Positions 1-18,425 of a DNA stretch of 64,000 bases are shown piece after piece. The first letter of the stretch is position 1. Every line of letters starts with the position of its first letter. The notes under the pieces are model-generated. The model did no database searches and was not told where the DNA came from. It saw only the letters and a program-made list of their open reading frames with translations. The translations under genes and the position numbers were made by a program. The DNA comes from Macrostomum lignano (taxonomy: Eukaryota), in contig NIVC01002967.1 in NCBI GenBank assembly GCA_002269645.1, forward strand, positions 1-64,000, read 5' to 3'.

Positions 1-1272
1 ATATACCTCCAAATATGACGTTGTACACGGTACTAGTTGCAGCATTGAAGCGTAACTCTAGTTTTACATTTCCTTCCTTATACAGTTGCACTCCCCGTCC
101 GACACCAGGTTCACTTCCAAGACTGAATGCAAAAATTGAGTAACCATTGGCGTAATCCAGCATATTAAATCCAATATCTCGTCCCTGTAGATAGATTCCA
201 AGCTGTTGTAGCAAAAAATTATACTCTGTCACACAATCATCTCCAAAGTTTGTCTGCAGCGGACGCGATGGTACCGAGTCTCCATTCACAAACACACCAA
301 TGCTGCTCACATTTGCATGCTCAAAGTTGAACGGATTTGTGTCCATGCTTCCATTGAATGCCTTGTTGCTTACGATTGCCATCAATAAAAGCCGTGGTAC
401 CCCACTAGGAAACAAATTTTCATGCGTATGGCTAGACGATCCTCGGGGTATAGTAAACGTACCAAGGCTTAGACTTCGGTGCGGATATAATGCATTGTGA
501 CTTTTAAGTCCATGAGCATGTGCACTGATAACACTCGGCGAGGGTTGAACAAACCGCAATCGTAGTTCTGCACGCAAAAACTTGATCTCATAGTCTTTTA
601 AAACCGCACCAGCTTCTAATGTTGACCGCTCAGGACAAATTTACTTTTTGCCGGTATGAGCTTGATCCGTAGTGGTGTCTTTGATAGTAGATACCGAGGC
701 TGACGAAACAAATCCAAGAATAACGGCCCCGATACAGTGCACCGCCTATTGTTAGCAATGAGCGCCTGCCTCTTTGTTCGTCCATCGTTTTCACTTGTTG
801 CATTCATTTTACCAGCTGTATCCTTGTAAAACCCCCACGGCAGTAAACCAGCCTTCTGAGCTGTATGTCCATATTCCAGTAATGTAAGAAGCATAGCCTT
901 GTATGGATACATAAAACTACCACCTTCAACTACAGTATCGCCAATAGTAAATTGAACGTCCTCAAACAATGTTCCAATAACCAAATTATTCAAACAAACA
1001 AAATTTTTCGTTGCATCTATAGGTTCACCTTCACTATCACTAACGCTGAAGCATACCGTGAGCACAGTTTCTTGTAGATCCAAATACAAATCGCCTGCAG
1101 GCACAACTTCAAATTCGATAGGTGATCCTTTTGTAATACCATGTTGCGGTTGAATGTTAGTATATCGATTATCCAAAACACTAAACTGAACAGGACTTTG
1201 ATCAAATAGCGACAATTCACTTTTAAGAGCAGCAATATCAGGTCCAAGCAAATGGTTCATGCTACTTTTCAA
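1..1272 (-). pseudogene. Polinton double-jelly-roll major capsid protein, frameshifted at ~620-640; C-terminus runs off the window
   Basis: KSELSLF...SPIEF...YPYKA..FYKDTAGKM in ORF 616-1272. After the TAG at 616-618 a shifted frame continues open to base 1 (SPSVISAHA...FNGSMDTNPFNFEH...RPLQTNF...GYSIFAFSL...LELRF), matching the C-terminal half of Maverick MCP. Confidence 0.9.
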
Positions 1273-1720
1273 ACAGACTAAAAAGTTTCTTGCTTGCAGT
1301 AGCAGTTCGACGTTTTCCTATACCACCGGTCTTCTTGCGTTTTCTTTTGTTCACGCGTCCCTTTCCACACTGTCTTGTTCGTCGTTTCTTTTGCCGTTTC
1401 TTCTTTCCTAAGCTTATAGCCACTCCACTGGTTCTTTTCCTTCGCTTTGGTCTCGAAACTGCAGTTGTATTAAACATCTCTTCGCTCGATTCTGTGTCCA
1501 AGTGACGCTTCCGACCCATACCAATTTTTGCTGTCGCACTTTTCAAATACTCCAGACCACGATCCAAGAAATCTTTCTTTGCGTTGCGTAGTACAGGATA
1601 CACCAATCTGTCCGCCAAATTTGACAAAAAACCGTAACCTTCGTAAACAGGAATGCCATATCCACCTCCACCTTCAGCAGATCTATTCGGACCAGAATAA
1701 AAAGCAAAAATAGGATCCAT
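1262..1720 (-). CDS. Basic core/membrane-active virion protein (pVII/pX-like)
   Basis: ATG at 1720 (MDPIF). GGGGYGIPVYEGYG-FLSNL amphipathic segment with an adenain-type cleavage motif, then a very K/R-rich tail. Located between integrase and MCP. Confidence 0.65.
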   Translation of the reverse strand: MDPIFAFYSGPNRSAEGGGGYGIPVYEGYGFLSNLADRLVYPVLRNAKKDFLDRGLEYLKSATAKIGMGRKRHLDTESSEEMFNTTAVSRPKRRKRTSGVAISLGKKKRQKKRRTRQCGKGRVNKRKRKKTGGIGKRRTATASKKLFSLFEK

Positions 1721-1761
1721 TTCAACAGTCTTCTCTTCGTCATGCAATCCCAATTCATGTG

Positions 1762-2922
1762 TTACTTATACACTTTAGAAAATAGTTTAGCAGTCTTTGC
1801 GTCAAGATCATTTTCGTTTAACCACTGACTTCTTGAGATTGGCATACCTTTCCATTTTACTAGATACAGACGACTTCCATTTTTCGCTCGATCAGTTTCA
1901 ATAACTTTTTCAATTTCATTAGGTGTTTCATCTGTCTCGTTTACCAACATTAGTTCCGCTTGGTTAAACCTTCCTTTCAGCACTTCAAATCCATCTTCAG
2001 GGTCCACTAATTCGTACATTGGCGGGTCTGTCAAGTGTACACGATGAATGCGATATTTTGAATTACTCCAAGTCGTAGTGTATCCTTTTTCAAATGTTCC
2101 TCGACGTCGTGTAATTCTAACCCAATCACCAACTTTAAATTTATTCTCATTCTTTTTAGTGTACGACTTCGCAAACATTTTGTCCCACAAAATTCCTTGT
2201 AAATGCGGGTCTGTCTCTACCCGTTTTGGTGTTTCTCCACTCAAGGATCGATGAGGACTAGAGTTGAAATTATCTTCCAATTGCGGTAAAATGTCAAACC
2301 ATCGAGGTAAATTTTTTGCTCGAAAGTATCGTAATAGACGTTCCTTTAACGAGCGGATAAATCGTTCAGCCATGCTTGCCTTGTAATTGCTTTGGCTAAC
2401 AAAAAATCGAACTCCTTCCTGTTTCAGCATTTGACGTGTAGCTCTTCCGAGAAACTCCATACCAGCATCACCTTGTAAATAAACAGGCTTAAAACCACTT
2501 CGAAAAATCTCTAGTAATACTTGACTAACTTCTGAAGGCTTCTTTGTACGCAATGGTCTTAGTCGTACAACTCTAGTAAAACAGTCGATAAGAACAAGTA
2601 TGTAACGATAACCTCGATTTTCCGTCTTGTATTGAGGTAAATCTGCCAAATCGATTTGAAACTGAAACTTTGCAACTGGTGGCACACTAATTTTTGGAGT
2701 TGGAAAGTTTCGTCGTGTTTTTCGAAATAAATGATGCTCATTTGTTGATCGCACCCAATTATCAACTTCGCGCTTTGCAACTTTGTTCGTAATCTGTGGA
2801 AACTTTTTACGTACTTCACGAACAAGTATAGTCTTGTTACCACTAAATGAAGTAGGCCTGTTCAAGTTAAAAAAAGCATCCGTCAAAAATTCTTCAATTT
2901 CCTTACGCACTCGCTTCATCAT
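1762..2922 (-). CDS. Polinton retroviral-like (rve) integrase with C-terminal chromodomain
   Basis: FQIDLADL, LIDCFTR, LQGDAGMEF, AERFIRSLK catalytic core; C-terminal IEKVI...YLVKWKGMPISRSQW chromodomain. Confidence 0.95.
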   Translation of the reverse strand: MMKRVRKEIEEFLTDAFFNLNRPTSFSGNKTILVREVRKKFPQITNKVAKREVDNWVRSTNEHHLFRKTRRNFPTPKISVPPVAKFQFQIDLADLPQYKTENRGYRYILVLIDCFTRVVRLRPLRTKKPSEVSQVLLEIFRSGFKPVYLQGDAGMEFLGRATRQMLKQEGVRFFVSQSNYKASMAERFIRSLKERLLRYFRAKNLPRWFDILPQLEDNFNSSPHRSLSGETPKRVETDPHLQGILWDKMFAKSYTKKNENKFKVGDWVRITRRRGTFEKGYTTTWSNSKYRIHRVHLTDPPMYELVDPEDGFEVLKGRFNQAELMLVNETDETPNEIEKVIETDRAKNGSRLYLVKWKGMPISRSQWLNENDLDAKTAKLFSKVYK

Positions 2923-3091
2923 CAGTTAGATTGATGCTAGTCGTTTGACAGTTGCAACAAAAGAACGAAGCCTCGATCGAATCTCCGTCAGTATCCTCGT
3001 TGTGCTCCTTTCCCAGAAACGGCACACATTCAGATTTTATGCAAAAAAACTCACAGAGACGAATCAAAAGTTTTTGGAAGATAGATGACAT
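2903..3091 (-). CDS. Small Cys-rich hypothetical protein (62 aa)
   Basis: True ATG at 3091, stop overlaps the integrase start, TATAAG motif 59 nt upstream. Confidence 0.4.
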   Translation of the reverse strand: MSSIFQKLLIRLCEFFCIKSECVPFLGKEHNEDTDGDSIEASFFCCNCQTTSINLTDDEASA

Positions 3092-3203
3092 GGTTTGTCT
3101 TATTAAACTATATATTTTTCATAAACAAAAAATTAACCTTTTTAAAAAGCTTATAGTGCTCGAATCAATTTTGTTAAAACGTAATCTGTAATTTTAAAAC
3201 AAC

Positions 3204-3893
3204 TTAATTCAGTGTTTGATAATTTTCAAACAGACTAAGATCCTCCTTTGCAACAGTTTTTGGAGCAGACATTAGCTCGTTTCGTACATGACGCCCGATT
3301 TGGTTTGCTGCGATTCCACGTTTTCGAAGAAAGTCTAAAAATGTTTTTAGTCCACTAGGCGGTTGAGTCTCGTGTCGCTTAAGCGGTCTGTCTCGAACAA
3401 CATATTCCATGAGATCTTGTATCTCGGCATCAGTCAAATTAGCCAGCATTGGTTCTGCATTCTTGTCCATGTCCGAAAATAGGTTTTGAGCGAGAGCTTC
3501 GAAACGTGGTAAAAAAACTTTAGGAATTTCCCTTGATTCGCTGGCATATGAACTTCTTACAGTAGTCCCTTTGCGAACAAGTGACAGATTGTCCTCGTCT
3601 CCAGTGCGATAGACTTTGCGCAATTTTAAAAGTTTGTCTTCCAATCTGCTTCGTTTCAATTGAGCTGTGTAATTTGGCTCCTTTTCCATTTCCTTGTCCA
3701 AGTTATCCATTTGGTCTCTCATTTCCACCATATTTTTTGCCAGAGCATCTTGCGGTGCGTCTAAAACTTCAGTTTTTCGAGGTGTCTCAGCAGTTGGTGA
3801 CGATCCTTGCTCTGCACCTTGACATGCAGATTGATACACAGATTCAGGTACTAGATACATTCGTTGAAAACTACTACTCTCGTTAGTTCGCAT
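3204..3893 (-). CDS. Polinton hypothetical protein (RMYLVPE N-terminal motif, coiled-coil)
   Basis: 229-aa ORF inside the virion module; the N-terminal M-x-LVP motif is typical of a conserved Maverick ORF. Confidence 0.6.
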   Translation of the reverse strand: MRTNESSSFQRMYLVPESVYQSACQGAEQGSSPTAETPRKTEVLDAPQDALAKNMVEMRDQMDNLDKEMEKEPNYTAQLKRSRLEDKLLKLRKVYRTGDEDNLSLVRKGTTVRSSYASESREIPKVFLPRFEALAQNLFSDMDKNAEPMLANLTDAEIQDLMEYVVRDRPLKRHETQPPSGLKTFLDFLRKRGIAANQIGRHVRNELMSAPKTVAKEDLSLFENYQTLN

Positions 3894-3968
3894 TATATTC
3901 CTACTACTTTCGTTGAATTGATCGTATTAAATTCGCTGCTCCCGCGGCGGTACCAACTACTCCAGACG

Positions 3969-4331
3969 TTATCCAAGCGCAGTGCTTATAGCAGGTAGAG
4001 CGGCAATAATTGGAGCCAAAAAAGGTAAAAATCCTCCGTGTTGGACAAGTATTTTCCTTTTTGCAGTAATTGGAGTCTTCTGTTCCAAAAGCTGGCGTAT
4101 ATATCTGCGATGCTTCTCAAGTCGTCTTTTGTTACAGTTACTAATTTTAATACGTCCACTAATAATATTAAACAGAAAGTCTACTAGACATCGTATCTCC
4201 GACTCTGAAAGTGTTTGTAAAAAACTTTTTCTCTGCTTTGGATGCTTTAGCCGATAAACAATTTGTAGTAAAAAAGCACACTGACACAATGAGCGAGCAT
4301 TTTGTTTTCCTTTTTCTGTTAGTTCGCTCAT
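3969..4331 (-). CDS. Conserved Polinton small basic protein with C-terminal QHGG-FLPFLAP
   Basis: Pattern CLVDFLFNIISGRIKI...KRKILVQHGGFLPFLAPII is characteristic of Maverick core-like proteins with an adenain cleavage site. Confidence 0.75.
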   Translation of the reverse strand: MSELTEKGKQNARSLCQCAFLLQIVYRLKHPKQRKSFLQTLSESEIRCLVDFLFNIISGRIKISNCNKRRLEKHRRYIRQLLEQKTPITAKRKILVQHGGFLPFLAPIIAALPAISTALG

Positions 4332-4387
4332 TCTTACAAAACAAATTCACAAAATTTTCTATTACACAATTAATCTTTGCTTATAAA

Positions 4388-5377
4388 TTAGTCCGACCTA
4401 TGTTTAAAATGCAGTACGACAACAACGTGTGCTCCCGGATCAAAATTAAACGGTTTTCCGCGCTGGTCCGATAGTCGAATCGAAATCTCGTGAATTTGTT
4501 GTCGATTTGTTTTCAAGTAGTAGGGTGTTTGCAATGCACTGCTATCGCGTATAAGTTCTCCGTTTTTCTTTTGTTGGAGTTCCACAACTCGAAGCAACGG
4601 TACTGATGTACTTCCCACTGCTTGATACTCGATTATATCTGTGTAACAGTACATGTAAACCGTTTTACTAGGCATCGGAGAAGGTAGCACAGCATCCAAG
4701 TAGGTTTTGTTAATGCGCCAAACACGATTTCTCAACCAATATTGGTGTACTTTGATGTACACTTCTCCTTCCGTTTTTCGAAGATAGTCTCCATGCGAAA
4801 CAAGTCGTATAGCTTCACCAGGCGATAGAACACAATAAAAAACATAATAGTTCTCAGGTACTAGCGCTAGAGTATTGTCGAGACTTTTTATCAAATCCAA
4901 GTATGAACCATCCGGTGGTTGTACACTACCAGCGGCAGGTTTTGATAATTTTTCCGAGACAAGTCCAGAAAGTTTCTTCCAAGAGTCAAATTTGAAAGCG
5001 TCCATAAATGTAACTGGTAGTTCTAATCCAATAGTTTTTTCGCCTGAATTTCGTAAAAGCCAGGCAAATTTTTCATCTGTACCAGACGGTTGCCAGGAAA
5101 CGTAAGCATCCAAGTCTGCCTCTGCCCAAACACGACCCCAATAGTTTTTCTTTAATCGTATTATTGAGTCAATGTCCGCAAAATATGGAACTTCAAATCG
5201 ACGCTCACGATGAGCATTTGGCGTCGTAATTGCTCCATGGCACAGTAATTCAACTAGTGCAACCTCGAAGAATCCGTTCAATAAATTTATTGGTTCAGTT
5301 AGTCGCACTCGAAATTCATTAGGCGAGTTGGTTTCGTAACTGATATCGTTTGACGGCAAAAAAACGTAAAAACTCAT
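4388..5377 (-). CDS. Minor capsid protein (penton)
   Basis: SFYVFLPSN...FRVRLTEPINL..FEVALVEL at the N-terminus; YCYTDIIEYQAVGSTSVPLLRVV...ISIRLSDQRG...VVLHF at the C-terminus. Confidence 0.9.
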   Translation of the reverse strand: MSFYVFLPSNDISYETNSPNEFRVRLTEPINLLNGFFEVALVELLCHGAITTPNAHRERRFEVPYFADIDSIIRLKKNYWGRVWAEADLDAYVSWQPSGTDEKFAWLLRNSGEKTIGLELPVTFMDAFKFDSWKKLSGLVSEKLSKPAAGSVQPPDGSYLDLIKSLDNTLALVPENYYVFYCVLSPGEAIRLVSHGDYLRKTEGEVYIKVHQYWLRNRVWRINKTYLDAVLPSPMPSKTVYMYCYTDIIEYQAVGSTSVPLLRVVELQQKKNGELIRDSSALQTPYYLKTNRQQIHEISIRLSDQRGKPFNFDPGAHVVVVLHFKHRSD

Positions 5378-5434
5378 TTTGAAATAAAACACAAACTAAT
5401 ATTGACAACAGTTTATAATTTGCTTATAATAATA

Positions 5435-6130
5435 TTACACAAACTTTGCATCACATTCACGAGTATAGACAACTTGTTCATCACCAGAAAATATTCCTGT
5501 TCTCAATCGTAAAAAATCTGGTGTCACTTGCCGCAGGTCAATGAATAAATATGAAAAAGGTTTGTTATTTGTTGCGTCTTCATACACATTCACTAGAAAC
5601 CTACTATTACGCGGATACATTTGTCGACCGAGATGTTCAACTGTGGTTCGATCGCGCACACTACGAGTTAGACAAATATAACTAGCTGATAAACTTCGCA
5701 TGCGTGCTTCTGGATCAGACTTGTTAAAAAGACCTTGACAAAGGTACAGACAAGTCAAAGGGATATGATGCGCATGCTTTGTAAACATACTAGTAAATTC
5801 TGGCAACTTAGCAATCTCGCTTTGCAAGTCGTCAACAACAACCAAATCGTGTGGTAAAAAACGATTAATCATCTGTGGTGTGAATTCGGGTACAAAAACA
5901 ATAGGGTCAAGACCGCTTTTTTGCCAGCATGTTCTAATTCGTTGTTGATCGTCTGGTTTCAAACTTGATCCATGGCACCAAACAAGACGGCACGGTTTTT
6001 TATCAAATAATTCTTTTCGTTCAGTCAACAAACGCAACGTCCATTCAGTTTTACCCGAGTTTGAAGGTCCAGCAATAATAAATGTAGAATCGTGAGCTAG
6101 TTGCATATTGTATGGCTGCTGCATTTTCAA
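5435..6130 (-). CDS. A32/FtsK-like DNA packaging ATPase
   Basis: Walker A IAGPSNSGKT, Walker B LVVVDD, HH motif and YLFIDL. Confidence 0.93.
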   Translation of the reverse strand: MKMQQPYNMQLAHDSTFIIAGPSNSGKTEWTLRLLTERKELFDKKPCRLVWCHGSSLKPDDQQRIRTCWQKSGLDPIVFVPEFTPQMINRFLPHDLVVVDDLQSEIAKLPEFTSMFTKHAHHIPLTCLYLCQGLFNKSDPEARMRSLSASYICLTRSVRDRTTVEHLGRQMYPRNSRFLVNVYEDATNNKPFSYLFIDLRQVTPDFLRLRTGIFSGDEQVVYTRECDAKFV

Positions 6131-6570
6131 GCACCAAAGCGTTGCTTAACTTGCATAACCTTGGTAACCAACTTCGCAGCTAGTTTTTCTTTCCAACCAG
6201 TAGACGGATCGTGGGCAATCTCTCGTGCACCAGATTCTAATAGCTTATCAGCTTTTAACCTCTCTTGCACGTCAGAATTTTTATCATAGGCCACGTCGTG
6301 AAGCATGCACAAATTGTCAAGCCGATTAATTCCTCGTTGTCCTTTTGCTAGCCTAGCTTGCAGTTGCGTACCTGGACCACAAAACTGATATCCGCCGGGT
6401 AAATGTGCTTCAAATGGTAAATGATTAATTAACCAATTTACGACACCATAACCTTGTTGCTTTTTATTAATCTTTCTAATAGATTTCTTCTTTTTACGAA
6501 TGCTCTTCTTTTTCTTTTTAAAACCTCGATCTTTCGCTGGAGACATTTTTACAACATATATTTTAGGCAT
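6127..6570 (-). CDS. Parvovirus VP1u-like phospholipase A2 (PLA2X)
   Basis: HLPGGYQFCGPG calcium loop and LDNLCMLHDVAY catalytic HD; basic N-terminus. Confidence 0.92.
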   Translation of the reverse strand: MPKIYVVKMSPAKDRGFKKKKKSIRKKKKSIRKINKKQQGYGVVNWLINHLPFEAHLPGGYQFCGPGTQLQARLAKGQRGINRLDNLCMLHDVAYDKNSDVQERLKADKLLESGAREIAHDPSTGWKEKLAAKLVTKVMQVKQRFGA

Positions 6571-6661
6571 AAATTTTTAAAATTGCTTATAGTATTTACA
6601 AAGCTCTCGCATAGTGCACCAATCACCAAAGAAAAAAATCAGTTTATTATTATTATTATAC

Positions 6662-7144
6662 TTATTGGCCAGTGCTGCCAAAGCCGCCAAAGCCGCGCCG
6701 CTTGGTCGGCGGCTCAATCATCCGAATCGAATTGTCTGCTTCAGTCACATAGACTGAAGCAAGCACGGCCTGCTCCAGAACCAGTTGTGCAATACTGAGC
6801 CCGGCATAGTACTCAAAGTCTTCCGGACTGTAATTAAACAAGACTATACAGATTTCACCAGTATAGTCGGGGTCGATTACGCCACCGCCAACAAATAAGC
6901 TGTGCAGAGCCATGCTGGAACGTCCCGCTATCCTGCCATAGGTACCAGGCGGTAAGCGAATTTTGAGTCCGGTTCGCACACTCCGGGACTCGTAGGCCGG
7001 AATGGTACCATCGACGCCAGCGCAAAGATCATACCCGATCGACCCGACAGTTTTTCGGGTCGGAATCGTTGCCGAATCGTATAGACGTTCAACTAAAAGC
7101 TTACGATCAGTTAGTTGTTGTTGCTGCTGCTGCTCGGGATTCAT
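6662..7144 (-). CDS. dut: Trimeric dUTPase
   Basis: All five motifs present: GSIGYDL, GRSS, GVIDPDYTGE, IAQLV, RGFGGFGSTG. Likely ATG at 7144 followed by poly-Q. Confidence 0.95.
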   Translation of the reverse strand: MNPEQQQQQQLTDRKLLVERLYDSATIPTRKTVGSIGYDLCAGVDGTIPAYESRSVRTGLKIRLPPGTYGRIAGRSSMALHSLFVGGGVIDPDYTGEICIVLFNYSPEDFEYYAGLSIAQLVLEQAVLASVYVTEADNSIRMIEPPTKRRGFGGFGSTGQ

Positions 7145-7436
7145 GTCGATTCTTGTAGCTGAAAGTTTAAAAAAAAGTTTTTTTTCTTGAAACATGAACG
7201 ATAGCACTACATTTACGTCTACTACAAACACAAGCTTAGTCTTGAGAATCTAACTATAAAAAATATACTTTTTCAAATAATTAAACACAAAAAAGTGCTA
7301 AAATTATAATTTAAACGAATGCCGGTATCATTTATTTATTGTAAATAATGATCAATGAAAAAATTAATGATGGGTTACAGTCTTCTATAGCATGCTATTA
7401 CTTTGTACAACAAAAGAGATCAGAGCATATTGTTAA

Positions 7437-7767
7437 TTAATTAGCCAAGTGCCAGTGTCCAAAGGGTAGCGAATTAATTGAACTTGTCCAGGATCGCTTC
7501 GTATCGAAGAAGCTTAGTGCAAGTTTTCTTTGTTGCATCAAAAAAAACTTTCTGTTTTCGAGAACGAATGGACTGTATGCGCGAAAACACAAGTTGTCGC
7601 TTGTGTAAGACTCTTAAATAGTCTTGATGCTTTAAACTGCTCTGTGCGGCTTTAGAAGCAGTACTGCTCCAGCTTTGCGACCGATTGAGACTGGAACTTT
7701 AAACGATTGCTGCTTAACCAGACCGGACCGGACTGGACCGGACCGGACTGGACCGGACTCCCCGCGC

Positions 7768-7799
<32 letters not shown>

Positions 7800-8545
7800 A
7801 CCACCACCACCGCCGCCACCACCACCACCACCACCGCCACCACCACCACCACTGCCGCCGCCCGCCCCACACCACCGTGGGACGTATTTGTTGACAGTGT
7901 GCTTGCATGGCTTTTGCGATAAACGCAGAGCATCAAGTCTAGCTGCTCGATTGCTCTATATTGCCAATTACTACCTCGAGATTGAAAATTGTCAATTTTT
8001 ATTAACAACTGATTAATAACGCGTGCGAACCAGTCATTGTAGGCCTCGGGAGATAACAGCATGTCACTGTTTGCAATCGTCTCATCAAATGATATTGTCG
8101 CAATGTTGGTATTAAAATAGACCGAAATGATCTCTTCGCTGCTCGAGCCATCGTTGTCGTCTGCTGCTGTTTTCGGTCGAAATAGTGTCACTTTCAAGTG
8201 AAAGCAGACTCTTATTAATAAACTGGGTGAGCCAATTTTTTCCAATATTTTAAATATTGGTTCTCTTAAAGACGCAATCAACTCGCCAGGAAGTAACTCG
8301 CCAGAGCTGTTGCCTTGTTGTTCAAGAGTGGGAGTAAATTCGACAAAATTTACCCGACCACGATGAGCTGACTCGCGCAAAGCGATGGACCACCCATCTG
8401 GTGGGTTTTCGATCAGGTTTTGCAGCGATCCGGTCAGTAATCGTTGCGGTGAAAAACAAGCACCATGCGAGTGAGCATGCAGCTCGGCTTGATTACTGAA
8501 CTTTTTTCTGCAGATTTGGCATTGTGCACGCGGCATTGTGTGCAC
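7437..8545 (-). pseudogene. Protein-primed PolB remnant: N-terminus (8545-~7900) and extreme C-terminus (~7700-7437), catalytic centre missing
   Basis: N-part: C2H2-like CQIC..H..H and KIDNFQSRGSNWQYRAIEQLDL (Maverick PolB N-terminal motif). C-part, translated by hand with one shift at the A-run near 7535: SLKHQDYLRVL...QSIRSRKQKV...RKLALSFFDTKR...SLPFGHWHL*. Confidence 0.8.
7721..7878. repeat. Compound microsatellite (GGACC/GGACT)n-(GCC)n-(ACC)n
   Basis: Directly visible; sits at the PolB deletion junction. Confidence 0.95.
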
Positions 8546-8759
8546 CTAGCTCGACAACGAGCGTATCGAGCATAATATTAATAGATGATCCGGTTTGTCA
8601 TTTGCGGCTGTAAGAAAAATGATGATTTGGTTAGTTATAGGTATAGCTGACACGTTTACTATTAGAGAAAACAATTGGTAAATAAATAAAAAAAGACAAA
8701 ATGTTTGTAAAAGAATGCATCGCAACTGCGATTTGACAGCAATTGTTTACTTGTTAAGT

Positions 8760-9317
8760 TTAGTTATTAACAGAGATTAAAAAATCCTTGACATGGTTAA
8801 GAATATTATTCAATTCATGAGTGTTTTGAACGCCCATAATAACAAACTTTTTCGAAAAAAATATGTTACAAAAAAGCCTTGGTTTTGATGCTGATCTAAC
8901 AGAAACTGCTTGTGGGAAATTTTCTGCATCGTATCCAACCAGATAATTCGAATAGTAGCCTGCATATCTTTTTAGACTAGAGAAACCGAATTTTGGCCAA
9001 AGATGACCAATAAAGCCGACATAGGTACTGCTCTGAATTTTTACTGAATCAAAATCTACACAATTAATAGTGTCGTTGATAAATCGTAAAACTGAGACTA
9101 TCTGAGAATTTGATTTACAGCCATATATAGTTAGTTTTCCTGCTGGATAAAGTTGGATTTTAGCATTTGAATAAATTGTCTTTAGCATTGTTGGTCGGCT
9201 TAGGAATAGTTTGCAAAACCGGTTTCTGGTCTGTAGCTTCTGTTTGGTCTGCTTTAAATCAAATTTTTCAAACGGGTGCAGCTTCAGACTCGCAGTAACT
9301 ATTAATAGGACAAGTCG
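8760..9317 (-). CDS. TATA-binding-protein-like protein (two TBP repeats), divergent
   Basis: Repeat 1: LIVTASLKL..FDLK...AKIQLYPAGKLTIYGCKS. Repeat 2: VKIQSSTYVG...YDAENFPQAVSVRSASKPRLFCNIFFSKKFVIMGVQN (cf. YEPELFPGLIYRM.KP.IVLLIFVSGKVVLTGAK). Frame is open to 9317, preceded by a polypyrimidine...TTTTAG acceptor. Confidence 0.75.
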   Translation of the reverse strand, partial: RLVLLIVTASLKLHPFEKFDLKQTKQKLQTRNRFCKLFLSRPTMLKTIYSNAKIQLYPAGKLTIYGCKSNSQIVSVLRFINDTINCVDFDSVKIQSSTYVGFIGHLWPKFGFSSLKRYAGYYSNYLVGYDAENFPQAVSVRSASKPRLFCNIFFSKKFVIMGVQNTHELNNILNHVKDFLISVNN

Positions 9318-9527
9318 CTAAAACGGAAAATAAATAATAAGAAAAGTTAAACATGACTATACTATCGTAAATTCTAATATTAAATTACAAAACCTGGTTA
9401 GCGTACAAGGAGTAGCAAAAAATGTTTTGAGCTTTTCCCTAAAAAATAATATTTCCCTAGCCAAAAATTTGATAAATATAGTGGAATAAGTTAGTTAAAA
9501 CTTGGATAAAATTAGTCAAAAATTTTG

Positions 9528-10726
9528 TTACTCATCATCAGAGCTGCTGTACGAGTCGTCCGATGAAGACACGCTAGCTGTAGTAGCGTCCGCAGCAGCA
9601 CGCTTTAAAAATGCTGTCTCCTTGGACGCTACCCTGGTTCCAGAGGCAGGTGTACTCACCAAGATCTTTGCTGGTGGAGCCTCCACCCAGTCTGTGCCAT
9701 CTGCACCAGCTTCGGCAGAATTGTTTTGCTGTTTTGCACCGCTGCGTTTTCGAACTTGCTTTTTAGGCGGCGGTTCAATAGAGGCTGGCGCTGCATTCGA
9801 TGTAGTCGACTTCTTCGATACGGTGGTGGTAGACCGACGCTTTGCAGGTGACTTGGCAGGTGTCACCTGGCTTGAATTCTGCAGGCTTTGTTCATTTGCT
9901 TCTTCTTGCTCACAGGTAGATGTTGGGGACGGACTCCTGCTTCTAATTGCTGACTTGGTCGCGGGTAGGTGTGCAAGCACTCCCTTGAACATGTCGAGGC
10001 GCTGCAACATGTTGTCGGAAGATTCTATGAGTGTCAGAGAGCGCACAGCGAATGTAATGCGCCAGACGAGGCAGCCTTTTGGACAATACAAGCTCGTTGC
10101 TTGCACTGTCATTTGGTAGGTACCGCTGACACCTTTGAAATCGGAAATGGACACCTCCTTCCCGTGTGGATGATCGTTGCTGATCCTGATTGTGGCACAA
10201 GGGTAAGCAGGCTTTATAGCCAGCCATTGTTGAGGCACAAACTCGAGGACGTCGTTAGCATGCTGATGAGCTGGTTTTGTTAGTCGTGCCAAGGGTCGAG
10301 CATCTTGAATCTCGTTCAACTTGACCGATAGACCTTTTTCGACTTGACTGCAAAACATTATATAAATTATGAATATAGTTTCCTAAAATTAATTGTATAA
10401 ATTTAATATGGTGCTCACCGGAGAGAGTGGAAGAGTTCCTTATCGCAGCTGTCTGGATGAAATTGGACACTTACTGCGTCGCGAGAGTCGTGTCTGCAAG
10501 ACGGATGATCGAGCTCTGGCCTTTCTGCGATTCCACGAAAAAGCTCCATTGGAGCCTTGGTTTGCAATATAATTGGGTACCATTTTGTACACTCGATTGA
10601 TGGTTTCCACGCAATAGATCGAAACTGGCAGGACGAACCAGTCGTGGTTGTAGACTGCTCTCCAACGTAAAAAATCGGACTCGAGTCGGAGCGTACAATT
10701 GACTCCGTCTTGATGCAAGCTGCCAT
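9528..10726 (-). CDS. Two-exon gene (intron 10348-10418), putative OB-fold ssDNA-binding protein with S/T/K-rich tail
   Basis: A 71-nt GTGAGC...TTTTGCAG AT-rich intron joins ORF 10415-10726 in frame to ORF 9528-10358 (ELFHSLR-QVEKGL). IILQTKAPMELF and TYQMTVQATSLY...WRITFAVRSLTL resemble viral OB-fold SSBs. Confidence 0.6.
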
Positions 10727-10804: not shown

Positions 10805-10812
10805 TATTTATA
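10805..10812 (-). promoter_or_regulatory. Canonical TATA box (TATAAATA) upstream of the SSB-like gene
   Basis: About 80 nt upstream of the ATG at 10726. Confidence 0.5.
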
Positions 10813-11419
10813 GCAAGCTTTGCATGCTGTTTGTGAACTAGTAAACAAATTTAATTGTTGCGTGCTGATTAAGACATTGTTGCGTGCCAAAGGTGGCATA
10901 AGTTTCTAGGGTGGGTTGCATGATTAGGTCTAATTTTACGCAAATGTAGGTTGATATTTTATACAATAAAATTAATGAATCTTAGGCACACTAGTTATAA
11001 ATTTGCAAGAGTAACACGATGGCAAGCGTTTAATAAGAAGACTGCTGGTTGCTGCTTCATTAGATTGGTTTTGTTCTCAAGTAGAATGTAATTAAAATAT
11101 TTTGCGACTTGAAAAATTAGCAATCTTGGATTTTAGAGTAAAAATAAGCTGCACGCGGTGCTATGAAATTAATTTATTGAAAGTTTTGCTTGCATGTTGG
11201 AATTTTTTAGCTCGCACGGTGACAAGAGATTGCTTGAGTAACCTATATATAGAGTGTTACTTTTCAAACAGAAAAAGGTATAGTTGTAACTCAGCTTTTG
11301 CAGTCCTATATTGAGCAGAAGCTATATAGAGTTACACTATCATGCTGCGACGCGCAGCTTGTTGGGACTATAATGACTGCCGCTGCTATAACCGCATGCA
11401 GTCAGTGCAGTTGACACAC

Positions 11420-12125
11420 AAATGCTGTTTGGACTAAGCTAAATTACTGTGTTGAGACAGTTAAGCTGGACCACGGCTAAATCACTATTGATACGGTTAA
11501 TTGCTACTAGACCCATGGCTAAATCACTGTACGTTGAGACGGTTAAGCTGGACCACGACTAAATCGCTGTACATTGAGACGGTGGTTAAGCTGGACCATG
11601 GTTATAAAACTGGACGGGTGGTTAAGCTGGACGACTACAGCTAAAATTACTGTTGAGTCAGTTATGCTAGACCACAGCAGCCAAATCACAGTTGAGGTAA
11701 AGCTGACCATAGCTAATTCTCACTGTTGAGACGGGTGCTGCTGCTTGGCTCACAGCTAAATAACTGGACAGTTAAGCTAATCGGACTACAGCTAAATCCC
11801 TGTTGAGACAGTTGCCTGGACCACAGCTAAAATCACTGTTGAGGCAGTTAAGTCTGGACAACAGCTAAAATTACTGTTGAGACAGTTTAGCCTTGACTAT
11901 AGCTAAATCATCGTTGAGGTAGTTAAGCCTGGACTATAGCTAAATCACTGTTGATGCAGTTTTAAGCTAGACCACAGCTAAATCATACTGCTGAGGCAAA
12001 AAAGCCGGACCACGGCTAAAAACTGTTGAGGCAAAAGCTGGACCACAGCTAAATCATACTGTTGAGGCAAAAGCTGGACCACAGCTAAATCATACTGTTG
12101 AGGCAAAAGCCAGACCATGGCTAAA
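11420..12125. repeat. Degenerate ~37-42 bp minisatellite (gctggaccacagctaaatcactgttgag...)
   Basis: Many tandem, diverged units visible. Confidence 0.9.
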
Positions 12126-12374: not shown

Positions 12375-12926
12375 TTAAGATAGGTCCCAATATTCAAATA
12401 CTTGAGTTGTATTACAGGTCTTTGGTAATTCTACTTGGTAGAAGCCTGTGCTCATTTGAGAGACTTTTACAGACTTGATGTCCTTCTGTACAATAATTGG
12501 CGAGTTTAGCAGCGGTTGAACTTGGGTAGAAATAGCAATTGATGATGATGGTGTTTCAGTTGCTGTCGTTGGTTTGGTACTTGTAGGCTTACTGCAAGTT
12601 TGCTTTGTTGGGTCATTGTAGCTGGTTGGTGATGGTGGTGGTGGTGCATACTGCAGTTGGTCAGTTGGTCGTGGGTTCGATTGCTGCCTAATTGACTGAA
12701 TAACATCAGTTCTTGTGTAAATGCGATCTAGCTCAGTTGTCTGTCTCTCGACATGAATCGAGGTTACTCTGGCGAGAGATGTAGAATATGATGCTCTTGC
12801 AGCAGAATTGGATGTGGTGGTGTCGTGGCAAATGCGTTTGCACTGATCTGGAGGTGGCCGCGTGAAGAAAACATTCTTGAATGCTATAATAATGGATAAG
12901 ATGAGGGAAATTTGGTATAGGTGCAT
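12375..12926 (-). CDS. Hypothetical secreted/membrane-anchored S/T/P-rich (mucin-like) protein
   Basis: Hydrophobic N-terminus (YQISLILSIIIAF) and S/T/P-rich middle; 183 aa with ATG. Confidence 0.45.
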   Translation of the reverse strand: MHLYQISLILSIIIAFKNVFFTRPPPDQCKRICHDTTTSNSAARASYSTSLARVTSIHVERQTTELDRIYTRTDVIQSIRQQSNPRPTDQLQYAPPPPSPTSYNDPTKQTCSKPTSTKPTTATETPSSSIAISTQVQPLLNSPIIVQKDIKSVKVSQMSTGFYQVELPKTCNTTQVFEYWDLS

Positions 12927-12941
12927 GTATACAATGTATAT

Positions 12942-13165
12942 AGAAACTGAACTAGCAGAGAATCAGTCTAAACAGAAACCGAACTAGCAGACAATCAATC
13001 TAGAAATTCTGAACTAGCAGAGTATTAGTCTAAACAGAAACCGAACTAGCAGAAAATCAATCTAGAGACTGAACAAACAGAGGATCGGTCTAAACAGAAA
13101 CCGAACTAACAATCAATCTAGAAACTAAACTATAGCGAACAGTCAATCTAAAAAAGAAAACTGAA
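12942..13165. repeat. ~30 bp minisatellite (gaactagcaga.aatca.tcta) with alternating units
   Basis: About 7 tandem units. Confidence 0.85.
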
Positions 13166-14691
13166 CTAGAGTAGGTGATTATCTTACCTTGTTTAACATA
13201 GCGCTCGGCCAATTCCTGCTGACGTGATCGCTTCATTTCACTTAAGATGTAAGTATAGTTGAACAAGTAGTATAATGTAAACTTGGTTTAAGTTATTTAA
13301 TATTTTCTGTGTCAGTGTGTTCGTATATATATATAGTATAAAGAAGAAGCATGTTGACGCAGTTGTTGACATAGTATCTGTAAACCATCTGCTCAAGTTG
13401 GTGCAAAAATTCTATAGGCACTCAAGAATAGATCATTTACTATCTTTCTTCAAAAGGGTGATAATATTCACAAGTTTTCAATATTTCAAAAACACTTGAA
13501 ATGTGTGAATAGCTTTGGAGTAAATTTGTCTTGAATGGAATCCTTTGAAGTGTGTTTGTGTCACCATTGCTAGAATCGGTTACTTGTATTTTGGACAGGT
13601 GGATATGCAATTCGTCTGAATAATCACGTTGCGTAAAAGATATTTAGCGTGCACTTGGAATTTCAGACTGCGTGCACATGGAATTTCAGACTGCGTGCAC
13701 ATGAAATTTCGGACTCTGCCATTTTTTTGGGCCTGTACTTACTATGTATTTCGCCATAAGGAAATCGGCTTTGTGTCAAAAAAACGTATACTACTTGGCT
13801 CTATGCTTCAAGCTTTTGGCTCGCTTGATGAAGTGTTGGGGGCTACAATTAATTAATACCTCAGCAGCTCATCACTACAACTGCAGCTCATCCACCTCCG
13901 ACTGTGGCGAGGACGGCTAGCATGAACGGTCTTCAGCTGGTGCTACCGCCAGTCACGGGGGCTGCCTACATAGTAAAAATTGACAAATTTGAAATAGTCT
14001 TTACTCCAATTTAGGTAAATTAAGCTTTGAAATTCCGATTTATTAATTAGTTTGCTACATGAATCTTGATCTACCGTCGTTTTTTTCTCGCTAATTTTTA
14101 CTAACATTTTATTCCTAACCAGTAAAATTTATATAAGGCTGCGATTGTAAATTGAAATAATTGTAACGTTTTAAATAAACGAGGCGAAAGCCGGTGGTTC
14201 TTAATTATTATTGGTAATAAGATAAGTTTACAAGATAGATCGAAGAACTGCAACCGTTTGATTGCGGGTGATTTATGTTTATAGCTTTTTCATGGAACAC
14301 TCCGGAAGAAAGAATTTTCTAGAAAGAGTCACGCGGGAATTGAAGTTACTATATTTAGAATCATATTTTAGCGCGGAAATTTCTCGAATGAAATGTTTAC
14401 TGAATAGTCGGAAAGTTTGCAAAGGTTTAGTACAAGGTCACAACATAATTAAAATTAAATAAGGTTGTTAATGTGCGTGCTGAAGCACAAAAGTGTCTAC
14501 TGATTATTGGAATACAAAGTAGTGAACAATGGTTTTTTATTTTTAATAAATAAAATGTTTGTTGCAAAGTTACAGCTGCATTATTCACCAACTTATTATA
14601 GCATAAAATATGTAAAGCATGCCTATTTTCAAAGGAAAAAAATGAATTACTAAATTTGGTAAAGTGGCTCGCTTGGCAAGTACAACAAAAA

Positions 14692-15989: not shown

Positions 15990-16755
15990 AGAGCCAAGAA
16001 CTGATTCAGATAGACTCCAACTGGTCTGAGTCAGAGTCTGACTATTCACAGACAAGACACCAACTGGTCTGAGTCAGAGTCTGACTATTCACAGAAAAGA
16101 CACCATCTGGTCTGAGTCAGAGTCTGACTATTCACAGACAAGACACCATCTGGTCTGAGTCAGAGTCTGACTATTCACAGACAAGACACCATCTGGTCTG
16201 AGTCAGAGTCTGACTATTCACAGACAAGACACCAACTGGTCTGAGTCAGAGTCTGACTATTCACAGACAAGACACCATCTGGTCTGAGTCAGAGTCTGAC
16301 TATTCACAGACAAGACACCAACTGGTCTGAGTCAGAGTCCAACTGGTCTGAGTCAGAGTCTGACTATTCAGAGACAGAAGACTCCAACTGGTTTGAGTCA
16401 GATTCTGACTATCAGAGACAGAAGACTCCAACTGGTCTGAGTCAGAGTCTGACTATCAGAGACAGAAGACTCCAACTGGTCTGAGTCAGAGTCTGACTAT
16501 CAGAGACAGAAGACTCCAACTGGTCTGAGTCAGAGTCTGACTATCAGAGACAGAAGACTCCAACTGGTCTGAGTCAGAGTCTGACTATCAGAGACAGAAG
16601 ACTCCAACTGGTCTGAGTCAGAGTCTGACTATCAGAGACAGAAGACTCCAAATGTTCTGAGTCAGAGTCTGACTATTCAGAGACAGAAGACTCCAAATGT
16701 TCTGAGTCAGAGTCTGACTATTCAGAGCCAGAAGATTCCAACTGGTCTGAGTCCT
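15990..16755. repeat. 43/44-bp minisatellite with two sub-blocks
   Basis: Period 43 (16021/16064), then 44 (16441/16485); each unit has TGAGTCA and the AGTCAGA-G-TCTGACT palindrome. Confidence 0.95.
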
Positions 16756-17013
16756 GTGGTTTCTGAACATCACAATCGTGCCACAGACGTCAAATTTCCT
16801 GTGATGTGTTGTGCGAAGGGAGGTAAGGTTAATAGAAAGAATTGAACTGATAATTTAGTAGGCAAATTCACTGACTGGAAATCTAAATAACTAAGTTTTT
16901 ACGGTAGAAAATTACACTTACGTCTTCATTTCACTGCCGGAAGTCTCTTTAATCTTCTTATAGATCGGTGGACTTCGACAGACTGTCTCGGCTGTCCTCT
17001 TAATAGTACCACG

Positions 17014-17372
17014 TTAGTCAGTGGAAGCGGTTATCTCGTGCTCATTGTCCGTAGTGCTGTAGCTTGGATCAGCCTTCTTCACATAGCCGCCAGATATGCA
17101 GAAGATGACGCCCTCTTGACACACGGTCAAAAATGGCTTTAGATTCTTTCCAAACACGCTGACTCGAATTTCGCCCGTGTCATCACATAGGATGAAGGAG
17201 AACACTTGGGCTGGTCCTCTTTTGCCTTCGAAGTCCGTGATTTTGCTCAGCCTCATTACCAGACCAACGATAGCAGCGTGCATCAGGCCCGGAAGCAGAG
17301 CAGCGATACACACTTTGCTTTTTTGGCTTGTCAATCGCATGACTCTAATGCTTGTTTGTTGGAATGATATAG
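17014..17372 (-). CDS. RPA70 (RPA1) DBD-A-like OB-fold, apparently truncated after one domain
   Basis: KVCIAALLP...AIVGLVMRLSKI...QVFSFILCDDTGEIRVSVFG...ISGGYVKKADPSYST..NEHEIT parallels RPA1 KLFSLELVDESGEIRATAF...ANKQFTAVKNDYEMT. Acceptor ttttgtccag at ~17373. Confidence 0.8.
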
Positions 17373-17815: not shown

Positions 17816-18042
17816 GTAGTGATCCGCTAGTTGATGTTAGGCGTCCCACTCTGTCAGCAGTCGCCCTTGCCTGGCCCGCGCCCTGGGTTGCTGTCTGCCG
17901 CTGGGCAGCGTCCCGTCCGGTCCCCTTTTGTCTGTCTGTTGCTGCTCCCTTCCTTCTTCTGCCCGTTTTGCCCTTCGTTTCTCAGCCCCCAGCTTCTCTG
18001 CTGTGGGCTGACCTCGTTCCGTCAGTCTTGGTTTCCCCTGTC
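17816..18042 (+). mobile_element. LINE 3' UTR-like fragment (diverged homologue of 25440-25670)
   Basis: Colinear similarity starting tgtagt.atccgcta and ending ttcccctgtca in both copies. Confidence 0.7.
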
Positions 18043-18425
18043 AAGAAGTTTAGCTGAGATTGAGGATGTTCTGGCGCTCGCCCAAACCGCCAGATCATCC
18101 GCATATTGACTAACATGTACCTTTCTATCAGCAGGCAGTGGAATATTGTTGACATATACCAGGAAGAGCAGCGGCGAGAAAACTCCCCCCTGTGGAACTC
18201 CAGCTGCCGGGGAGAAGCTCTCGCTAAGAGCCCCTCCAACCTGGACCTGCAGATCTCTATCGTCAAGATAGCTGGAAACTGACCTCGTTAGGCAATGGGG
18301 TAGACCACTTTCAAGGAGATCTAACCGTAGCGAGTCATGCCAGACTCCATCGAAGGCACCTTCAACGTCAAAGAAGACCCCAAGGGTGTACTGACTGAGT
18401 TGCAGCATCTTGAGGACGTCATCAG
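18043..18425 (-). pseudogene. Inverted duplicate of the LINE RT segment (left arm; continues at 23216-23320 after the Gypsy)
   Basis: Reverse complement of 24253-24740 with one mismatch seen. Confidence 0.9.

Follow-up and report, generated by a model that had tools for sequence, protein, structure and literature searches.

In the beta- and gammaherpesviruses, late promoters carry a TATT box that is read by a virus-encoded TBP-like protein, namely BcRF1 in Epstein-Barr virus (EBV), ORF24 in KSHV (Kaposi's sarcoma-associated herpesvirus) and murine gammaherpesvirus 68 (MHV68), and UL87 in human cytomegalovirus (HCMV) (PMC4893493). Baculovirus late promoters have the sequence (A/G/T)TAAG, with transcription starting inside the TAAG, and are read by a viral RNA polymerase (PMC9786725). 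Virophages and PLVs (polinton-like viruses) share promoters with their giant-virus helpers, as in the late motif common to mavirus and Cafeteria roenbergensis virus (CroV) and the early AAAATTGA common to Phaeocystis globosa virus virophage (PgVV) and its helper PgV (10.1101/2022.07.28.501842). In the main texts and figure legends of the adintovirus papers, "TBP" occurs only as a label in the legends on MELD viruses, and the word "promoter" is absent from the main texts (PMC8502044, 10.1101/697771). Our literature search on Polinton promoters and TBPs, outside which most subscription papers lay, returned no paper describing a Polinton late promoter. Here we analyse a window of 64,000 nucleotides (nt) from the flatworm Macrostomum lignano (contig NIVC01002967.1 of assembly GCA_002269645.1, positions 1-64,000), in which positions 1 to ~13,797 hold one end of a Polinton/Maverick element on the minus strand. 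Its virion genes are preceded by a conserved TATAAGC box that is probably a late promoter read by the element's own TBP-like protein, analogous to the herpesvirus TATT box.

An earlier note on this window had reported TATAAG upstream of five virion-module genes and, at a greater distance, of the major capsid protein (MCP) gene. The six sites are indeed found on the minus strand, at 1413-1418, 1765-1770, 3150-3155, 4380-4385, 5423-5428 and 6586-6591, and all lie on the sense strand of the Polinton (Table 1). The reported spacings of 45, 59, 49, 46 and 40 are coordinate differences, corresponding to gaps of 44, 58, 48, 45 and 39 nt between the end of the hexamer and the ATG, and the copy before MCP is as distant as described. 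The count of five virion-module genes has to be amended in one respect: ATG 3091 opens a 62-amino-acid (aa) open reading frame (ORF) that overlaps the integrase start and is no known virion gene. Two further copies had been missed. The TATAAGG at 77-82 is probably a by-product of coding; in sister families it lies 128-134 nt upstream of the protease gene (four of six families), and G at +7 occurs in none of 27 true boxes.

Taken alone, the single copy gives modest evidence, suggestive and not decisive. TATAAG is not enriched over the whole 64 kb (26 seen, 36.0 expected). Within positions 1-7300 it occurs eight times in sense and once in antisense against a shuffle mean of 1.92, a count of eight being reached in 1 of 500 shuffles. 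When five 100-nt upstream regions were shuffled at once, some hexamer was common to all of them in 58 of 3000 trials. The observation is firm because of conservation across families, not because of single-copy statistics; enrichment, missing from the window as a whole, is found in the virion modules across families.

We compared six related families, F1 (that of the window) to F6. F3 and F4 are 95% alike and the other pairs share 58-67% ATPase identity, which leaves five independent lineages; F4 was omitted where independence mattered. Incomplete, rearranged or redundant copies (F7, F8, L051-L052, L088-L095, L100-L106) were omitted from the counts. Over six boxed positions in six families, TATAAG is exact at 32 of 36 sites, and the remaining four carry a one-base variant at the same place (TATATGCA three times, TATTAGCA once). 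The 30 nt 3' of the box are scrambled between independent families (1-15 of 30 identical, ungapped). Among 27 sites (F4 omitted), C stands at +7 in 23 and A at +8 and at +9 in 21 each, giving a full box of (C/G/T)TATAAGC(A/T); A stands at -1 in only one, and the box is therefore no piece of the canonical TATATAAG. The virion modules (44.2 kb) hold 28 sense copies of the box and no antisense copy (0.2-0.4 expected per element), and 45.9 kb of replication blocks hold a single copy. Genes coupled to a boxed gene seldom have a box of their own (ATPase in one of six families, the unknown ORF in one, the integrase in none). The MCP box lies inside the core ORF in all six families, where a third-position T, ATA and AGC are fixed amid changed residues (~0.017 per lineage by codon use), and no ATG intervenes between it and MCP. 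Host histone loci carry a canonical TATA in 14 of 20 cases, 75-92 nt before the ATG; TATAAGC is found in none of them, and one also has TATAAGA. The motif noticed earlier is thus a conserved, position-fixed and strand-specific promoter-like element of the virion block, unlike the host TATA. Its retention at six sites across lineages of ~60% protein identity shows virion-gene expression to be under selection. In F2 (L033 8465-8641), a duplicated spacer 5' of the phospholipase A2 (PLA2)-like gene holds four TATAAG copies, of which two are variants, either TATATAAG-like or TATAAGT.

The candidate reader is encoded in the same element. Its TBP-like protein matches Pfam TBP (2.2e-7) in two stretches, and an AlphaFold2 model (pLDDT 90.9) is predicted to have the two-repeat saddle fold of TBP (Foldseek E 6.5e-10, TM 0.75). 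Starting the frame at its first ATG would remove the first strand, and an AG acceptor lies just 5' of the same conserved N-terminus in sister families. In all six F families the aromatics that intercalate into and kink DNA are kept (F/Y, Y, F and F at yeast F99, F116, F190 and F207; numbering against chain 1ngm_A with an inferred offset of 60), as is the acidic D-x-E stirrup of the second repeat. The DNA face has changed at the canonical base-reading residues L114, L205, N69 and N159, from all of which the F-clade protein departs: Gln at L114 and Asn at L205 are invariant polar changes (6/6), N159 is replaced by Ser or Thr, and no conserved Asn occupies N69. The host TBP has the canonical residues and lies far on the tree from the element protein, which sits on a long branch. 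Yeast TBP-L114F reportedly favours TATAAG, which we treat as a lead only. A search for homologous proteins with the element TBP found none (36 candidates, 0 scored), and no relatives were found in viral contigs by an ATPase search or by alignment searches with ATPase, MCP and TBP. In F4, F5 and F7 the TBP open frame (L039, L048, L056, L087) extends over 353-473 codons, and in F5 it runs as a single frame into the deoxynucleoside kinase (dNK) gene.

Other Polinton lineages have other boxes and other TBPs. Four G-clade families of the same genome (G1, G2, G4 and G9) encode a TBP different from that of the F clade and carry YTTAAGAA 7, 7, 6 and 5 times, never in antisense (0.2-0.5 expected); F-boxes occur 0-1 times in them, and G-boxes 0-1 times in F1-F6. 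The metagenome locus L121 has TATAAACA nine times (0.6 expected), L110 has YTTAWGCA 30-46 nt 5' of five ORFs, and G6 has the canonical CTATAAATA five times. Pfam TBP was found in distant G families of the M. lignano genome and in all three metagenome-locus ORFs tested, the G6 protein being a weak candidate only (profile E 0.17, no Pfam match). The G families had been considered as TBP-less controls and were rejected once TBP was found in them. For G5 and for several short metagenome loci (L108, L111-L114, L118 and L119), de novo motif discovery yielded no usable result. G-clade Polintons (L058-L065, L081-L086) also contain a PC4-like gene behind a canonical TATATAAG. Because two clades share a single host TBP and yet each retains a non-canonical box of its own at many separate sites, an element-encoded reader is the simplest cause, and the comparison points to such a reader, the divergent TBP being the obvious one, rather than to the host TBP. 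With four or five lineages and motifs found post hoc, the argument does not prove co-evolution statistically. At the L205 position, Asn accompanies TA at positions 1-2 of the box (F, L121), and Gln at the L114 position accompanies GC at positions 6-7 (F, L110); these correspondences are a lead only. The cognate link to the TBP-like protein suggested in the earlier note thus gains comparative support from lineage-specific boxes in lineages with a divergent TBP gene, while binding of the box by TBP is what we infer.

We propose that (C/G/T)TATAAGC(A/T) is a non-canonical TATA element marking the promoters of the virion-module transcription units, which would be PLA2 with ATPase, penton, pX with its neighbour, the small ORF with integrase, core, and MCP with protease. 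The PLA2 box probably drives both PLA2 and ATPase, whose stop and start are adjacent. The replication block, comprising the genes for the single-stranded-DNA-binding (SSB)-like protein, TBP, dNK, protein-primed DNA polymerase (pPolB) and dUTPase, would be transcribed first from a canonical TATA by host TBP, and its transcripts would be resolved by cis-splicing and spliced-leader trans-splicing. The viral TBP, once made, would bind the box and turn on the boxed genes by recruiting host TFIIB and RNA polymerase II (Pol II), with starts ~25-30 nt downstream and nested virion transcripts. The box would be read mainly by the element's own TBP, and each Polinton lineage would possess its own TBP and its own box; the candidate boxes to set against the F-clade, G-clade, L121 and host TBPs would be TATAAGCA, CTTAAGAA, TATAAACA and TATAAAAG.

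The replication block is consistent with the first half of this scheme. Its upstream end bears a canonical TATA in F1, F3, F5, F6 and F7. The canonical TATAAATA that the earlier note had placed before an SSB-like gene is real, its 78 nt to the ATG being comparable with the 75-92 nt of the histone TATA boxes, and the SSB identity is a weak lead only (feature matches of 0.81-0.85 to DUF2738/Pox_I3 clusters). Transcript evidence consists of assembled contigs from 4 of 24 runs, which are likely RNA and carry no starts, strand or levels. The intron in the first gene (10348-10418) is joined across CT..AC in contigs of two of the four runs. In one run the same foreign leader of 22-23 nt, ending in ATG, is attached at the AG acceptors 7159 (dUTPase) and 8608 (pPolB), the pattern of spliced-leader trans-splicing of replication genes. 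Flatworm spliced leaders end in an AUG able to start translation (PMC9851317). The same leader AUG would start the TBP frame, which has no upstream ATG, in phase from its acceptor at 9318-9319. Leader ends were absent from the TBP acceptor and from the virion genes, an absence that carries no weight in contigs of this kind. A second GT-AG intron (12884-13187) appears in run contigs, in a transcript near the terminal inverted repeat (TIR) with a 183-aa ORF (12375-12926) lacking a Pfam match.

The distance between box and gene indicates where transcription would start. In the 32 exact F sites the gap to the ATG is never below 35 nt, and in held-out clades 27 of 29 gaps are at least 29 nt. Upstream ATGs (F4 and PLA2 omitted) occupy 14 of 660 positions at offsets 0-29 and 0 of 800 beyond (p = 1.4e-5; p = 0.0074 without MCP). 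In the F families this spacing favours a TATA-type element with a start at the proposed distance, not inside TAAG. A start site was considered at 1744, where a contig breaks 20 nt downstream of a box, and was rejected, since the tandem duplication of a genomic copy begins exactly there: in L107 (G000:C877) a core and MCP cassette is tandemly duplicated from the equivalent of window position 1744, and the junction is present in contigs of two runs.

Several observations weigh against a late promoter read by the element's TBP. The 30-nt cut-off was picked after the F data had been seen, and upstream ATGs in the held-out clades are 10 of 824 versus 3 of 602 (p = 0.26); one F2 variant site, read by eye, has an out-of-frame ATG at 45 nt, and no clear initiator motif was found. 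Of 21 boxes at the penton, pX, small-ORF and core genes, 20 fall between -16 and +10 nt relative to the stop codon of the preceding gene, so that position alone also fits a 3'-end signal. The two-phase programme of the earlier note holds in so far as most families start the replication block from a canonical TATA; early and late genes are not cleanly separated, because dUTPase has TATAAG 5' of one of its Met codons in three of six families. Nor is a simple split universal, since in G1, G2 and G9 a YTTAAGAA box also stands 68-74 nt 5' of the gene for TBP, which may possibly provide positive feedback. The boxes of G5 and G6 are canonical or near-canonical, TAAG at positions 3-6 is common to F, G and part of M1, and the G families and metagenome loci yielded no Polinton that clearly lacks TBP and could serve as a control. 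Binding of EBV BcRF1 in vitro is alike for TATA and TATT (PMC4893493), and specificity may therefore need partners.

Among the alternatives, the one that survives best is an unlikely one, in which host TBP or host TRF2 reads the box as a weak TATA variant, selected for low output until templates amplify, and the viral TBP has another role as a decoy or in early-gene control. The host does have a canonical TBP and a TRF-like paralogue (the TRF2-like gene is at L128, G000:C350), the box is TATA-like in sequence and spacing, and G6 with its canonical box and the TATATAAG before some genes would fit such a reader. It would be hard to reconcile with lineages that keep different non-canonical boxes in one host at 4-7 separate sites each, with the single A at -1 among 27 sites, a base that would make a TATATAAG-like canonical box, and with the absence of TATAAGC from the 20 histone promoters.

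The likeness to the baculovirus late TAAG motif drawn in the earlier note is not supported. A (D)TAAG late start of baculovirus type, or a virophage-like helper promoter for which a co-infecting large DNA virus supplies the RNA polymerase, is very improbable, despite the TAAG core, the AT-rich leaders of ~45 nt and the borrowing of helper promoters by virophages and PLVs (10.1101/2022.07.28.501842). With a start within TAAG, the leaders would contain upstream ATGs at 14 per 660 nt, compared with 14 per 1960 before unboxed genes; the 35-nt floor of the F gaps, the TATATGCA and TATTAGCA variants at four orthologous sites and the TATAAACA of L121 all argue against it, and the element encodes its own TBP. 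Genes for a viral RNA polymerase (lef-8, lef-9, p47, lef-4) were absent among the scanned element ORFs, a search that did not extend to a helper in the host genome.

We give equally little credence to an operon-like array in which the box would serve the preceding gene as a signal for polyadenylation or termination. In all six families the MCP box is internal to the core ORF, by 124-169 nt, the PLA2 box follows dUTPase's canonical AATAAA by ~50 nt, and the last gene in F2, F3, F5 and F6 ends with AATAAA and not with a box; moreover, a signal read by the host should be alike across lineages in one host. These points stand against the overlap or close flanking of upstream stops already described, the scarcity of AATAAA between virion genes and the fact that the host trans-splices. 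An origin by chance in AT-rich spacers, or as a side effect of Tyr-Lys and Ile-Ser codons, is hardly credible and for the six main sites is ruled out by conservation at 36 of 36 sites counting variants, by the strand bias and by the scrambled flanks, even though enrichment is lacking over the whole window, the copies at 77-82 and probably 3985-3990 look incidental, and Tyr-Lys codon choice alone gives p ~0.29 per lineage.

The element itself reads, from its outer end, TIR, SSB-like gene, TBP-like gene, N-terminal part of pPolB, dUTPase, PLA2-like gene, ATPase, penton, pX/mu-like gene, unknown ORF, 62-aa ORF, rve-chromo integrase, basic core-like gene and MCP (Table 1). Of the Polinton hallmarks, a retroviral-type integrase (rve and chromodomain) and a TIR with AG..CT ends are present; pPolB is represented by its N-terminal part in the window copy and by full DNA_pol_B_2 ORFs in F2 and F4. 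The labels penton, core and MCP follow from gene order and homology between copies, with 0 Pfam matches. A Peptidase_C5 match was obtained for the G1 protease only, and the F protease, MCP and penton had no Pfam match.

Table 1 Coordinates of the boxes, genes and signals of the Polinton end in the window.
Feature	Position	Strand	Remarks
PLA2 box TATAAGC	6585..6591	-	39 nt 5' of second in-frame ATG 6546; exact in 4/6 families, TATATGCA in 2/6
Penton box TATAAGC	5422..5428	-	45 nt 5' of ATG 5377; exact in 6/6 families, 37-48 nt
pX box TATAAGC	4379..4385	-	48 nt 5' of ATG 4331; exact in 6/6 families, 37-82 nt
Small-ORF box TATAAGC	3149..3155	-	58 nt 5' of ATG 3091 of the 62-aa ORF; exact in 5/6 (35-58 nt), TATATGCA in 1/6
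Core box TATAAGT	1764..1770	-	Final two integrase codons (Tyr-Lys-stop); 44 nt 5' of ATG 1720; exact in 5/6 (40-45 nt), TATTAGCA in 1/6
MCP box TATAAGC	1412..1418	-	Within core-like ORF, 152 nt 5' of ATG 1260; exact in 6/6, 118-159 nt
Extra TATAAGC	3984..3990	-	Missed by the earlier note; within pX-like ORF, 91 nt 5' of ATG 3893; in 1/6 families (the window's)
Extra TATAAGG	77..82	-	Missed by the earlier note; Tyr-Lys-Glu codons of MCP; 128 nt 5' of protease ATG in sister copies; in 4/6 families
MCP	from 1260, in 1..1720 block	-	Frame stops at 616 here; 440-442 aa in sister copies
Basic core-like gene	1262..1720	-	Label from gene order and homology
Integrase	1762..2922	-	rve 4.5e-8 and chromodomain
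pX/mu core-protein-like gene	3969..4331	-	PF05829 4.7e-5, slightly below cut-off
Penton/minor capsid protein candidate	4388..5377	-	Position and Polinton gene order; no Pfam match
Packaging ATPase	5435..6124	-	Walker A motif; no Pfam match above cut-off
PLA2-like gene	6127..6570	-	Parvovirus-type domain, PF08398 3.4e-9
dUTPase	6662..7195	-	Spliced-leader acceptor 7159-7160; AATAAA downstream at 6643-6648
pPolB N-terminal part	7652..8608	-	Matches N-terminus of 903-1159-aa sister pPolB ORFs; spliced-leader acceptor 8608-8609
TBP-like gene	8760..9317	-	185-codon open frame right after pyrimidine-rich AG acceptor (9318-9319); first ATG 9188
First replication-block gene, spliced	9528..10726	-	Exons 10726-10419 and 10347-9528; intron 10348-10418
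Canonical TATAAATA	10805..10812	-	78 nt 5' of ATG 10726; candidate host-TBP promoter of replication block
Terminal inverted repeat	13692..13797	-	106 nt, 96% to far end of sister copy; AGTAGT end near 13795

An ATPase search of the M. lignano genome gave at least 24 full-length matches at 100% (150 scored of 374 candidates), with several families at 60-67% and others at 30-39%; these copy counts are inflated, because host single-copy genes also turn up ~3 times. The pPolB ORF of the window (7652-8536) ends in a GGN-repeat tract (7712-7868) with no polymerase domain, and the dNK gene of the sister families is missing. The distance from TBP to ATPase is ~3 kb in most copies of the window's family, ~6 kb in a few and ~7.7 kb in F2. 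The window's family looks like a non-autonomous derivative that was amplified and has retained all late boxes. Polinton copies sit beside or within ankyrin-repeat sequence (L031 32-1750; L073 ~2300-2760). Degenerate tandem repeats occur inside the element at 11400-12100 (~30-35 nt units) and outside it at 16000-16760 (~38 nt units), and the element flanks (17014-17340, 18022-20735) contain an RPA-like OB-fold fragment, a reverse transcriptase fragment and a Gypsy-like gag-pol ORF.

A broader reading, on which we stand evenly divided, is that animal Polintons carry private, co-evolving pairs of TBP and promoter. Each mini-TBP with its re-tuned DNA face would read its own box (TATAAGC, YTTAAGAA, TATAAACA or YTTAWGCA), so that co-resident families would run insulated late programmes untriggered by host TBP or by each other. 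If true, these elements would form a natural library of altered-specificity TBPs, and "transposons" would keep a regulated early-to-late virion cycle in which, in this clade, the start of the trigger protein is supplied by the host spliced leader. This touches on the question of whether virions are still produced by animal Polintons and on the control of the capsid genes, for which it names a candidate switch, one small protein and a box of 7-8 nt. Several natural TBP-box pairs could show how TBP reads bases and could yield orthogonal core promoters. The viral-TBP late-promoter strategy would also reach beyond herpesviruses to another virus group unrelated to them, reduced there to a single protein.

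With the described Polintons, Mavericks and adintoviruses (Starrett et al., PMC8502044, 10.1101/697771) the elements compared here share the integrase, PLA2-like gene and TIR, and probably also pPolB, packaging ATPase, capsid genes and protease. Their TBP resembles cellular TBP (PF00352; PDB 1ytb, 1cdw, 7egb) in its saddle fold, four aromatics and acidic stirrup, and differs from it in an identity of ~20%, a long branch, Gln and Asn at L114 and L205 and the lack of Asn at 159. As in virophages and PLVs, one short motif stands before several genes of a Polinton-related genome; their motifs belong to the helper, whereas the Polinton has a candidate reader among its own genes and relies on the splicing and trans-splicing of the host. 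The baculovirus promoter is similar in the TAAG core, present in two or three lineage boxes, and in the short AT-rich leader, but the Polinton spacing points to a downstream start, and the TAAG that is invariant there is broken at 4 of 36 sites here and absent from the L121 box. The herpesvirus TATT system is the closest parallel: in both, structural genes follow a TATA variant that is not canonical, the viral genome encodes a protein of TBP fold, and a canonical TATA precedes the genes that are, or in the Polinton would be, expressed earlier; transcription by host Pol II, binding and timing in the Polinton are presumed by analogy. The herpesvirus factor acts in a six-protein complex, whereas that of the Polinton would be a stand-alone TBP of 185 aa and two repeats; Pfam matches to TFIIB or the herpesvirus partners were absent among the scanned element ORFs, remote homology not having been searched. 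The Polinton box, moreover, is TATAAGC and not TATT, and it varies by lineage (TATAAGC, YTTAAGAA, TATAAACA). By this analogy the Polinton box would work like the herpesvirus TATT system without being a member of it, and what the present case adds is a single host that harbours two distinct boxes along with two distinct TBPs.

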